DNA of 64,000 bases from an uncultured Acidobacteriota bacterium (GCA_963729975.1 CAVSPI010000001.1:2766625-2830624); one strand, 5' to 3'. Counted from the first letter of the stretch, positions 5,987 to 64,000 are shown. The notes: generated by a model from the letters alone, not told the origin. A program made the numbers and translations.

Positions 5987-6372
5987 TTACCGTGCGCCTG
6001 ATGCCTTGCCGCATGCTCGGCGCCCCGAAGTCAGCAAGAGGCCAACCGGGACGCCCGCCAAGCAGACGTACGTGTGCAACTGGCGAACATGAATGGGCAG
6101 AACGGCGTCGACAGCCTTCACCTCGATCACCACGTGCTCATCGACCACGAAATCAGCTCTGAAAGCACAGTCGATCACGATGCCGTCGTACACCAACGGC
6201 ACGGTCTTCTGACACTCGAAGGAAAGGCCGGCAACCACGACTCGTGCCGGAGGCAGGCGAGATAGGCGCTTTCGAGCAGCCCGGGGCCGAGGTGCCTGTG
6301 AATTCTTATGGCGGACGCGATGATGGCCGACGTCAGGTCGTCGAGGGCGTCGGCACTTCTTCCGGGGCGCAT
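5987..6372 (-). pseudogene. GxxExxY-family protein (PD-(D/E)XK nuclease superfamily) split by a single frameshift near 6237.
   Basis: N-terminal frame (6175..6372): MRPGRSADALDDLTSAIIASAIRIHRHLGPGLLESAYLACLRHE, containing the G-x-x-E-x-x-Y motif GLLESAY. C-terminal frame (5987..~6235): AGLSFECQKTVPLVYDGIVIDCAFRADFVVDEHVVIEVKAVDAVLPIHVRQLHTYVCLAGVPVGLLL. The two ORFs overlap in different frames. Confidence 0.7.
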
Positions 6373-6491
6373 CCAAGGGGCTTGTGCGGAGTTCGTGCCG
6401 GGCGACGACGCTCGGCTGGCGTTACCGAAAGCCCAGGCGGTGCGCAGAAGCTGCGAGGCCGCAAGTGGCGGCGGTGTGGAGTTGATCCACC

Positions 6492-7733
6492 TCAGGCCTC
6501 GACATACAACGCATCCCGCAGCCGCGCGAAGCGCGCGTCGCCGCGAAAGCTGTCGGCCTTGGGATCGACGTTCAGTGAATAGACGAACGCGGAGTTCTCG
6601 TCGAAGGCGCGCTCCAGTTCGTCGAACGCCTCAGCCTGCTGGCCGAGCGCCTGCCGCAGCACGGCCATGTGATACGCGTCCACGTACTCGAAGCGCCGCA
6701 CCTGCTCCAGCTGCTGCAGGATGGCGCGAGCCTCGCGGGTGCGCGTCATCTTGGCCAGGCACGTGCCTTCGAGCGCGCGCAGCCACGGCAGGTCGGGCGA
6801 CATGACCGACGCGAGCTGGTACTGGGCGAGCGCCTCGTCCAGCCGGCCGGAGAACTCGAGCGCCTGCGCGTAGTTGGCGCGTGAGATCTGCAGGTAGGGA
6901 TGCAACTCCACCGCCTTGCGCCCGAGCGTGATCGCCTCGTCGAACTCCCGCCGCCAGACGCGGACGTTGACGATGGTGGCGGGAAGCGTCGGCAGCAGAG
7001 GGTCGGCCTGAGAACCGCGCTCCACGATCTCGAGCGCGGCGTCGAGGCGGCCGAGCGTGGCATAGAGAAGCGCGAGGCGCACGTGCGTAGTGGCGTAGTC
7101 CGGCTTCTCGCGCAACACCTGCAGGAACTCCGCTTCCGCCTCCGCCAGTCGCCGCTCGAACAAGTGCAGCCCGTGCGCGCGGTTGCAGCGCAGCTCGGGG
7201 CGCAGGCCGCCGGCATCCACGGCACGGACGTGCGCGTCGAGGAAATCCTTGTAGACATCGCGCGGCGCACGCATGCCGAAGGTGGCCAGCATCAGGGAAC
7301 AGGTCGACAGCCCCTCGTAGGCGCGGAAGTCGCCCGGACACTCGCCGGCCGCCTGCGTGAAACATTCGATGGCGCGCTCGGCGCCTTCACGCGTGCGGCG
7401 GTTGGAGAAGTGCCAGCCCGTGCGCACGAGCTCGTCGGACGAGGGCACCTCGAGCACGTAGCCAACCTTGGGGCGGTGGCTGATCCAGCCGGCATACTCG
7501 CCAAGGCTCTTCTTCACCGCCGCCACGGTCACGTCGACCGTGTGGCGCGAGACGAACGTGCCTTCCCACGCCTCGGCGATCATCTGGTCGTAGTGGATTG
7601 GCTGCGCGCGGTGACGCAGCAGCACCTGCAGCACGCGCCGCGCCTGCGGGCGCAGCTGCACCTCGACGCCGTCCCGCAGCAGGCGGGTACCGGTCTGGTC
7701 GAACGCGAAGGGCCCGAACGAGGTCTGAGGCAT
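6492..7733 (-). CDS. Transcriptional regulator with an N-terminal OmpR/PhoB-type winged-helix DNA-binding domain and C-terminal TPR repeats.
   Basis: FAFDQTGTRLLRDGVEVQLRPQARRVLQVLLRHRAQPIHYDQMIAEAWEGTFVSRHTVDVTVAAVKKSLGEYAGWISHRPKVGYVLEV matches the trans_reg_C signature. Downstream are TPR-like repeats (LALLYATLGRLDAALEIVERG..., ANYAQALEFSGRLDEALAQYQLA). Confidence 0.85.
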   Translation of the reverse strand: MPQTSFGPFAFDQTGTRLLRDGVEVQLRPQARRVLQVLLRHRAQPIHYDQMIAEAWEGTFVSRHTVDVTVAAVKKSLGEYAGWISHRPKVGYVLEVPSSDELVRTGWHFSNRRTREGAERAIECFTQAAGECPGDFRAYEGLSTCSLMLATFGMRAPRDVYKDFLDAHVRAVDAGGLRPELRCNRAHGLHLFERRLAEAEAEFLQVLREKPDYATTHVRLALLYATLGRLDAALEIVERGSQADPLLPTLPATIVNVRVWRREFDEAITLGRKAVELHPYLQISRANYAQALEFSGRLDEALAQYQLASVMSPDLPWLRALEGTCLAKMTRTREARAILQQLEQVRRFEYVDAYHMAVLRQALGQQAEAFDELERAFDENSAFVYSLNVDPKADSFRGDARFARLRDALYVEA

Positions 7734-7775
7734 GCGGACGTACGGCAGAAATTTTTGGCGTTTCTTCGCGCGCGG

Positions 7776-61400: not shown

Positions 61401-61882
61401 GCCGACGTCCTGCTGCAGCGCGGCGGTTCAGCTCGACCAGGAAGTCGATCGTGCGCTGCGGCGTGCGATCGATGCGTGGCGAGAAACTGCGTGCAGACAG
61501 CGGCCCGGCCGGCTGCACTTCGCAGATACGGCGCCAGCTCCTTGCGCAGCAGCGGCGTCGTAGTCGAACGGAAACTGCTTCGGCGTACGGCTCGAGGAAG
61601 AAGTCGAACGGGTTGATGACCGCCATCTCGGCGACGAGATCGACCTCGACGGCGAGACTCGCGCGTCTGTCTCCGGGAAAGACGAGCGCGCGCCAGGTAG
61701 TTGCCGTGCGGATCCTGCTGCCAGTTGAGGAAGTGCTCGGCCGGCTCGATCCGCAGCGAGTAGCTGAGGATCGGCGTGCGGCGATGCGGCGCCGGACGCA
61801 GCCGGACGACCTGCGGCGACAGCGTGACCGGGCGGTCGTAGCGGTAGACGGTCTTGTGATGGAGCGCGACGCGAATGGCCAT
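58411..61882 (-). pseudogene. Large transglutaminase-family protein with a DUF2126 C-terminal region (M. tuberculosis Rv2566-like, ~1150 aa expected), shattered by at least 10 frameshifts.
   Basis: Recognisable segments in different frames: [65 protein letters not shown]; ...[26 protein letters not shown]; ...[89 protein letters not shown]; [32 protein letters not shown]; MPAYEDAWYYLWKERRLPVNVDPLDSR; [60 protein letters not shown]; [27 protein letters not shown]...[40 protein letters not shown]. Confidence 0.7.
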
Positions 61883-61889
61883 GCGGGTA

Positions 61890-62949
61890 TCGTGCGGACG
61901 CGCCGGACGTCCGGTCGGCCGATCGAGGACGGACGCGGCGGCGTCGCGCGCTTTGCGACTGGCTGCGGCGTGCCGGCGGCACCGGCGCCTGGCGGCAAAG
62001 AACGTCTCGTGAATGCCGGCGCTCGACCTGCGTTCATGCTTGCTCTGCAGCTCGTCGAGGTACTCGTGCAAGCCCGCCGTGGATGATGTCGTCGACCGAG
62101 CGTGAAGTCGAGCTCGGCGCAGAGCTGCCCGAGCAGCTGCTCGGCCGCGGTTGCGGAACGTGCCCGGCGGCGTGCCGGTGATCGCGTGCAGCGATTCGCG
62201 GCGCGGCGTCAGGCAGTAGCGCACGGCGCGCGGGAACTCGCGGTCGAGCAGCAGGAACTCGACGACGTCGGTCGGCGCGATGCGGCCGTGCCGCTTGCGG
62301 TACATCTCGAAGCGCGCTGGCCGACCGCAGCACCGCCGCCCACTGGATGTCGTCGAACGGCGTGCCGACGTCGCGCGATCGTCGGCAGCAGCAGGAAGTA
62401 CTTCACGTCGAGAATGCGCGACGTCTTGTCGGCGCGCTCGAGCAGCCGGCCGAGGCGGCAGAAGTGCCAGGCCTCGCCGTGCGACATCGTCGCGTCGGTG
62501 ACGCCCGCGAACAGGTGGCTGCGCCAGCTTGACCTCGGCGAAGAAGTCGTGCGGCGTCGCTCGGGCGTCGTGCCGCGACGCGCCGCGTCTGCGACCATGC
62601 AGGTAGAACTCGTTGACCTGCTCCCACATCTCCGACGAGATGATCTCGCGCACCGTGCGCGCGTTCTCGCGCGCCGACGCGCAGGCACGAGAGGATCGAG
62701 TTCGGGTTCTCGCGGTCGAAGGTGAGGAACTCGATGACGTTGTCGCTGCGTCGGCCGCGCCGTAGCGCTCCTCGAACGCGCTCGTGCGTCGCCGGTGGTG
62801 TCGACGAGCGGCTCCCACTGCTGCGCCGGAGCCGATCGGGCAGGTCGAGCATGCAGGTTCAGGTTGACGTCGATGAAGCGCGCGACGTTCTCGGCGCGCT
62901 CGATGTAGCGGCTCATCCAGTAGATCGAGTCGGCGACGCGGCTCAGCAT
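61890..62949 (-). pseudogene. Stand-alone alpha-E domain protein, multiply frameshifted.
   Basis: [32 protein letters not shown] (N-terminus at 62949); ...[21 protein letters not shown]; ...[25 protein letters not shown]; ...[45 protein letters not shown]; ...[34 protein letters not shown]...[10 protein letters not shown]...IHETFF. All lie in shifting frames. The 3' end is approximate. Confidence 0.65.
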
Positions 62950-64000
62950 CGGTCACGCTGCCCGATTCGCGCTGCGTCGATGACGCGCCGGTCGATGCCA
63001 CGCCGTTCAGCCAGCACCCAGGTGTCCTTGCTGCCGCCGCCCTGCGACGAGTTGACGACCAGCGATCCCTTCTTCAGCGCGACGCGCGTCAGCCCGCCCG
63101 GCAGCACGTAGATGTCTTCGCCGTAGAGGATGTACGGCCGCAGGTCGACGTGCCGGCCTTCGAGGTGGTCGTCGACGATCGTCGGGCACGCGCGACAGCG
63201 CCAGCGTCGGCTGCGCGATGTAGTTGCGCGGGTTCGGCCGCGATCCGCTCGGCGAACTCGTCGCTGCTCCGCCTGCGTCGCGTGCGGCCCGACCAGCATG
63301 CCGTAGCCGCCCGACTCGTTGGCCGCCTTCACGACCAGCTTGTCGAGGTTCTCCAGCACGTGCTGCGCGGTCCTTCTCGTCGCCAGCAGACGATACGTCG
63401 GCACGTTCGGCAGGATGGCGTCTTCGCCGAGGTAGTACTTGATGATCTGCGGCACGTAGGCGTAGACCACCTTGTCGTCGGCGACGCCGGTGCCCGGCGC
63501 GTTGGCCAGCGCCACGCGGCCGGCCGCGGTAGACGTCCATCAGGCCGGGCACGCCGAGCATCGAGTCGGCGCGGAACGCCTCGCGGGTCGAGGAAGTCGT
63601 CGTCGATGCGGCGGTAGATCACGTCGACCCGCTCGAAGCCCTTGCGTCGTCCGCATGCAGACGAAGCCGTCGGCGACGACGAGGTCGCGCCCTTCGACGA
63701 GCTCGACGCCCATCTGCTGCGCCAGGAAGCGAGTGCTCGAAGTAGGCCGAGTTGTAGATGCCCGGCGTGAGCACGACGACACGCGGCGACTCGACGTCGG
63801 CGGCGCCAGGTACTCGCAGCATGTCGCAGCAGCCGGCTCGGGTAGTCGTCGCACCGGGCGGATCCGCGACGCCTCGAACACCTGCGGGAAGGTGCGCTTC
63901 ATCACCTCGCGGTTCTCGAGCACGTAGGACACGCCCGACGGGCAGCGCAGGTTGTCTTCGAGCACGTAGATCTTGCCGTCGCCGTCGCGCACCAGGTCGG
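62943..64000 (-). pseudogene. Stand-alone circularly-permuted ATP-grasp (type 2) protein, 5'-truncated by the window edge and multiply frameshifted.
   Basis: ...[42 protein letters not shown]; ...[20 protein letters not shown]; ...[30 protein letters not shown]; ...[13 protein letters not shown]; [45 protein letters not shown]...[27 protein letters not shown]; ...[72 protein letters not shown]. These lie in several frames. Confidence 0.65.

Follow-up and report, generated by a model that had tools for sequence, protein, structure and literature searches.

In this work we analyzed a 64,000-nucleotide stretch of DNA, hereafter called the window, from an uncultured Acidobacteriota bacterium (CAVSPI010000001.1, 2766625-2830624), in which conserved genes broken by frameshifts alternate with long tracts of uninterrupted coding sequence. 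All coordinates are positions in the window, of which 5,987 to 64,000 are displayed. The sequence has 69% G+C and no ambiguous bases, and its genes are closest to those of Acidobacteriota, chiefly from metagenome-assembled genomes (MAGs) of Vicinamibacteria/Vicinamibacterales, with 50-71% amino-acid identity for the test gene. Exact matches place eight of the window's intact proteins on a single contig of 5,974,930 bp held by NCBI and ENA; from its size, this parent contig is presumably the product of a long-read assembly.

Raw lists of open reading frames (ORFs) are uninformative at this base composition, as long open frames occur in all six frames. Coding frames were thus called by codon-position G+C, using the third position (GC3), and then by codon usage trained on the intact genes, with a seven-state Viterbi path. 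Individual events were mapped with a frameshift-tolerant protein-to-DNA aligner and later with a profile version of it built from up to 119 homologs.

Dense patches of frame-breaking indels

Same-strand frame switches were visible without any recourse to homology at 15.7-17.2, 22-23.6, 30.8-33.8, 41.4-42.8, 43.5-44.8, 47.2 and 58.3-64 kb, whereas outside these clusters the Viterbi path kept the coding frames unbroken over kilobases. When the segments were stitched over the switches, the resulting proteins matched Pfam families in a single stretch, as seen for HerA_C (7-491 of 502, 573 bits), CP_ATPgrasp_2 (74-374 of 374), Alpha-E (1-294 of 294), DNA_ligase_A_M (1-204 of 204) and DUF2126 (418-746). 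Since these matches are nearly full length, the frameshifts lie inside genes and are not junctions between adjacent genes.

Frameshift-aware alignment to homologs and profiles revealed no fewer than 105 indels that disrupt the frame, distributed over 13 genes; 91 are insertions and 14 deletions, a ratio of 6.5:1. The original prediction of clustered, strongly non-uniform frameshifts was confirmed by an index of dispersion of 8.7 for events per kb and by Viterbi switches at the loci it had named, although its estimate of at least 30 shifts was too low by more than threefold. The longest event-free stretches measure 11.1, 9.7, 8.3 and 8.0 kb, and at a uniform rate the chance of finding even 9 kb without an event would be 4e-7. 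A clean stretch of about 9 kb had also been predicted, and indeed coding frames are continuous on the minus strand from 6486 to 15929, which served as the clean control. The portion from 6.5 to 10.9 kb was verified directly, since its four genes (6486-10951) show no shift relative to a collinear short-read metagenome contig with 84% nucleotide identity; the remainder is supported by the continuity of the frames.

Four dense patches carry 0.8-1.4 events per 100 nt. In the three densest, insertions outnumber deletions by about 14:1 according to the per-gene counts, whereas outside the dense patches there are about 9 insertions and 8 deletions, a balanced ratio, and the events there include typical deletions in short homopolymers, such as C5 to C4, AA to A and some that adjoin GGG or CCC.

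The first patch (15930-16924, minus strand) holds 14 single-base insertions, or 1.41 per 100 nt, within the HerA-like/DUF853 gene at 15639-17155. There is no other kind of event in this gene, and both of its ends are clean; at the rate observed inside the patch, the probability of 520 nt of event-free flanks would be about 7e-4. Once corrected, the HerA-like protein agrees with the homolog consensus at 424 of 498 residues.

The second patch (31018-31845, minus strand) comprises 5 insertions and 2 deletions in D3, a zinc-ribbon/membrane gene at 30919-32013, which was mapped with a profile of 40 homologs from syntenic metagenome loci. It belongs to a conserved cluster of a zinc-ribbon gene, an SPFH gene and a second zinc-ribbon gene, for which eighty metagenome loci supplied homologs. 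The other two members have one event each, both on the minus strand. The SPFH/Band_7_1 gene (32021-33059) has a single +1 insertion at 32279, at the 3' edge of (GGC)4, and after correction it yields an entire Band_7_1 domain and 317 consensus residues out of 346. The zinc-ribbon gene D1 (33089-33800) has a single +1 insertion at 33509. The whole cluster (30919-33800), encoding a zinc-ribbon protein, an SPFH/Band_7_1 protein with a C-terminal HTH_17 and a zinc-ribbon membrane protein, occurs collinearly in dozens of contigs from soil and rhizosphere metagenomes, and the SPFH protein is conserved across these at 90-94% amino-acid identity.

The third patch (41763-42615, plus strand) consists of 7 single-base insertions in a gene for a PQQ-dependent sugar dehydrogenase of the sorbosone type (41307-42783). 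The corrected protein matches the consensus at 391 of 456 residues.

The fourth patch (58296-64000, minus strand) is by far the most heavily affected, with 68 events (1.19 per 100 nt) over at least 5.7 kb, and it extends past the end of the window. It covers most of an operon of five genes, whose intact syntenic counterpart is found in a Vicinamibacterales MAG contig (L025) in the order CP_ATPgrasp, Alpha-E, DUF2126, ATP-grasp/Alpha-E fusion and transglutaminase; this operon also provided the homologs for the neighbors of the DUF2126 gene. All five genes lie on the minus strand. Twelve events fall in the CP_ATPgrasp gene (62946-63998), 14 in the Alpha-E gene (61925-62949) and 41 in the transglutaminase/DUF2126 gene (58429-61882), the latter divided into 32 insertions of one base, 4 of two bases, 4 one-base deletions and 1 two-base deletion. 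The fusion gene, which reaches to 58394, has a single event, a deletion at 58296 that lies some 100 nt into the gene. The rest of the operon (54963-58295), namely the remainder of the fusion gene and the transglutaminase gene, has no event in the 3.3 kb adjoining the patch. In other words, the first three genes of the operon account for 67 events and the last two for 1, which lies within 100 nt of the patch boundary. At the rate of the patch, the chance of no event in the 2.4 kb of the fusion gene would be about 4e-13. Inside the patch the spacing of events is exponential, that is, Poisson-like, with a coefficient of variation (CV) of 0.90 as compared to 0.80-1.24 in simulations.

Conservation of the affected genes and character of the lesions

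After removal of the indels no internal stop was left in any of the affected genes, including those of the HerA-like protein, D3 and the dehydrogenase, and all of them read end to end. The corrected proteins are 79-92% identical to their homolog consensus. Even at near-invariant columns, defined as those at least 98% invariant among homologs, only 8 of 1135 positions deviate in six genes: 1 of 239 in HerA, 5 of 383 in DUF2126 (by profile alignment), 0 of 205 in the dehydrogenase, 1 of 67 in D1, 1 of 152 in SPFH (a GTG start) and 0 of 89 in D3. Several of these eight columns adjoin unresolved double events. Thus, the predicted indel-only damage with intact motifs was borne out. Moreover, more than 120 homologs each of HerA, DUF2126 and the dehydrogenase were compared, and none of them needs a shift at the affected positions.

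All three codon phases are represented among the +1 insertions, with weighted counts of 21, 13.5 and 17, and 9 of them lie unambiguously between positions 1 and 2. Only 14% of the insertions could be placed in a homopolymer run, as against 37% of background positions, so that the slippage-type lesions proposed earlier are for the most part not what is found. The inserted bases are rich in G and C (84% versus 71%) and poor in T, with a modest enrichment of CpG, and no common motif was found at the event sites, whose contexts are heterogeneous. The evenness over codon phases, the avoidance of homopolymers and the exponential spacing together describe a random process that is blind to the reading frame and has a constant local rate. 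The patch edges are sharp and unrelated to gene structure, as the first patch lies within the HerA-like gene and the fourth ends some 100 nt inside the operon's fourth gene. A repeat search of the window found no repeats or joins at these edges.

Isolated events and neighboring features

The remaining events are isolated. The gene for an ATP-dependent DNA ligase (46870-47923, plus strand) has a +1 insertion at 47213 (GAT GCC [g] CTT), and the DNA_ligase_A_M match mentioned above spans this junction. In the gene for an extracytoplasmic function (ECF) sigma factor (22001-23274, minus strand), one base is missing at 23062 from a run of C, which is reduced from C5 to C4, giving AACCCCGC instead of the expected AAC CCC CGC; Sigma70_r2 is matched across the junction. 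This sigma factor (DUF6596), whose gene lies beside a YciI gene, shares 72.7% amino-acid identity, across 99% of its length, with a sigma factor from Pseudomonas aeruginosa/Acinetobacter plasmids that is carried together with YciI genes, an unusually high value between phyla so distant.

The GxxExxY/PDDEXK_3 gene (5922-6372, minus strand) lacks one base near 6241 and another near 6032, where AA is reduced to A, and the corrected protein matches PDDEXK_3 over positions 2-116 of 117. Both of its lesions are deletions, in contrast to the dense patches. Its third-position G+C is far below that of its neighbors, with codons such as AGA, ATT, GAT and TTG, which suggests that the gene was recently acquired.

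The NHL-repeat gene (43466-44754, minus strand) has a deletion at about 43852, an insertion at about 43770 and another deletion at about 43510, on which three full-length homologs concur. Its best homolog, the database protein P0392, has a C-terminus that fits the wrong frame of the gene family, as judged against 43485-43700 of the window, and is therefore a frameshifted gene call from another assembly that is now in the protein collection.

Two loci listed as frameshifted in the original prediction, an alpha/beta-hydrolase remnant (36.0-36.4 kb) and a PPOX remnant (37.3-37.9 kb), gave no Pfam match and were not confirmed as such, looking instead like truncated fragments. At 35843-36357 a truncated PadR-like N-terminus lies beside short fragments on the opposite strand that resemble both ends of an alpha/beta hydrolase, and at 37312-37878 there are PPOX-like C-terminal pieces distributed over three frames. 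These fragments may be genuine gene debris. A further shift suspected at 27.7-28.7 kb proved to be two separate genes. At 178-245 the codon-usage path changes frame for 68 nt where the first gene, which is partial, has a low-complexity segment rich in Ala, Gly and Arg; this change may represent an extra pair of indels or a mere compositional artefact.

Two kinds of repeated sequence were also seen in the window. An intergenic element of about 31 nt, made of a GGGTCC-GAAA-GGACCC hairpin followed by GCCCTAC, is present in at least eight copies, at 11164-11194, 13620-13656 (inverted), 23752-23782, 27159-27189, 27233-27263, 45624-45654, 53967-53997 and 53998-54028; two copies are exact tandem duplicates, two lie within a 70-nt duplicated unit, and the element looks like a REP- or terminator-like repeat family. 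In addition, two paralogous genes about 16.5 kb apart (36611-37300 and 53137-53900) have stretches in common that are 71-78% identical in nucleotides and correspond to repeat families D3, D5 and D10, and in several related loci their homologs adjoin the homolog of the gene at 37849-39900.

Origin of the frameshifts

According to these data it is highly probable, at roughly 93% in our estimate, that the clustered frameshifts are localized consensus errors of the assembly and that the affected genes are intact in the organism. Most of the 5.97 Mb contig, presumably derived from long reads, would have isolated indels at a low background rate, among them several one-base deletions in short homopolymers, whereas the four patches (at least 5.7 kb in one case and about 1 kb in the other three) would carry about 1.2-1.4 spurious single-base insertions per 100 nt. 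Such patches are probably places where consensus building or polishing failed or misbehaved, and the candidate causes include low local depth, a segment of unpolished backbone and over-calling by the polisher. We favor consensus error because the process is blind to frames and genes, works at a constant rate, makes insertions only and has sharp on/off limits, as is usual for technical processes. Frameshifts caused by indels are a recognized problem in metagenome assemblies from long reads, and especially in those from nanopore data on soil (PMC13087279). The isolated C5 to C4 and AA to A events are classic homopolymer deletions.

Some observations weigh against this explanation. The profile of the dense patches, with insertions outside homopolymers, a bias to G and C, few T and very few mismatches, is unlike the textbook residual error of nanopore data, which is homopolymer deletion. 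Failure of polishing in regions of extreme G+C, as had been proposed, is not supported by the comparison per region, since the G+C of the patches is 0.70-0.71 and that of clean regions is 0.69-0.715, with the clean fusion gene as the most G+C-rich (0.715). Cross-mapping of reads from related taxa in conserved genes does not account for the pattern either, since the SPFH gene, with its 90-94% identity, has only one event. Finally, the collections hold no genome of the same species, and the closest relatives have about 84% nucleotide identity or 70-90% amino-acid identity.

Other technical routes were also considered. Cross-mapping is further at odds with a fusion gene that is 68% conserved and clean and an Alpha-E gene that is 71% conserved and dirty. 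If both alleles of single-nucleotide polymorphisms (SNPs) between strains had been written into the consensus, events would be expected beside third codon positions; as the phases are evenly represented and 9 events fall unambiguously between the first and second positions, SNP doubling is unsupported as the main cause. Assembler windows would leave a regular spacing, and the spacing is exponential instead.

The other option offered by the original prediction, a set of accessory genes inactivated so recently by natural indels that substitutions have not yet accrued, is very improbable and is effectively excluded, whereas localized consensus errors, the first option, are strongly supported. It is true that the lesions stand in the deposited sequence, that some isolated events are plausible as natural slippage (C5 to C4 in the sigma gene, AA to A in PDDEXK_3, and the SPFH insertion beside (GGC)4) and that the truncated fragments at 35.8-37.9 kb hint at some genuine decay nearby. 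Recent pseudogenization could still hold for a few of the isolated homopolymer events. However, one frameshift is enough to kill a gene, so that 14 or 41 of them imply a long period of neutral evolution, and natural decay does not fit with such numbers in one gene without stops or changes at invariant sites. Mutation-accumulation work has established that indels are a minority of spontaneous bacterial mutations, substitutions being several-fold more numerous. Therefore, 14 neutral indels in 1.5 kb should bring tens of changes in invariant codons and a few stops. Bacterial mutation is also biased to deletions over insertions, and one-base indels concentrate in homopolymers; here insertions prevail by 6.5:1 away from slippage contexts, with a constant, Poisson-like density inside the patches. 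Moreover, the damage does not follow the gene as the unit of relaxed selection, since one patch begins and ends inside a gene and another breaks off within an operon.

A second biological explanation would be a real, localized burst of insertions, for instance a mutation shower from error-prone repair synthesis in tracts of 1-6 kb, too recent for other changes to have followed. The patches, which measure about 1 kb or at least 5.7 kb and have a uniform rate inside, do resemble repair or replication tracts, and a gene for a ligase of the non-homologous end joining (NHEJ) type lies in the window. Nevertheless, we consider this even less probable than recent decay. No bacterial polymerase or repair pathway is known to yield about 1.3% of non-templated +1 insertions almost without substitutions, which counts against a burst, and four independent tracts in 64 kb, each wrecking conserved genes, would have to dominate the consensus of the population. 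As the interrupted genes otherwise look fully functional, one may also entertain the broader proposal that the extra bases are real, with about 1.3% of genuine +1 insertions in kilobase tracts that either come from a novel insertion-prone repair or replication process or are tolerated through a novel kind of recoding or editing; its chance seems to us just as slight as that of the burst. Neither a burst nor recoding has any known mechanism or motif to account for it, and both are contradicted by homologs that are unshifted. Least credible of all is programmed recoding, in which genuine extra bases would be passed over in expression through +1 ribosomal frameshifting, bypassing or deletional RNA editing. 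Each frame segment is open and conserved and the corrected proteins have their full length, but the sites have no motif in common and are random in codon phase, the shifts are absent from all homologs, including the syntenic Vicinamibacterales operons, and from neighbors in the same operon, and there are also deletions and 2-nt insertions.

With consensus error as the preferred explanation, the finding brings no biological novelty, and its value is that of a quality flag and of a worked example in which assembly frameshifts are separated from decay by sequence alone. If the deposited sequence were annotated as it stands, no fewer than 13 genes would be recorded as pseudogenes or broken up into dozens of pieces, which matters for counts of pseudogenes and gene content in this lineage. 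The genes at risk include those for the HerA-like ATPase, the NHEJ-type ligase, the ECF sigma factor, the SPFH cluster and most of the five-gene ATP-grasp/transglutaminase operon. Protein databases have already begun to receive fragments of this kind, as P0392 exemplifies. Many indels of the same sign per gene, preserved invariant residues, absence of stops, random codon phase and sharp edges between clean and dirty sequence could together flag such regions from the sequence itself.

Comparison with known systems places the window accordingly. In programmed +1 frameshifting of the prfB type, and in the rescue of homopolymer frameshifts by transcriptional slippage in endosymbionts, an ORF likewise resumes in another frame after one extra or missing base. 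Those systems rely on defined shifty motifs or long poly(A/T) runs, with one site per gene that is conserved among relatives, whereas here there are tens of sites per gene, with no motif and none common to homologs. The pseudogenes of recent decay in Mycobacterium leprae, Sodalis glossinidius and host-restricted Salmonella are similar in that frameshifted genes of recognizable family stand amid intact ones. Recent pseudogenes usually bear one or a few mixed lesions (stops, deletions or insertions of IS elements), and older ones also substitutions; the genes described here differ in having up to 41 lesions each, nearly all +1, with invariant residues kept and no stops. The third comparison is with the indel errors of long-read assemblies, which are gauged by protein-length tests of the IDEEL type and repaired by tools such as proovframe. 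The patches differ from these in being dominated by insertions outside homopolymers and in a density that is sharply two-state along the contig. What the window has in common with them are split or truncated calls in well-conserved genes, single-base indels without substitutions, isolated homopolymer deletions and a single contig of several megabases.

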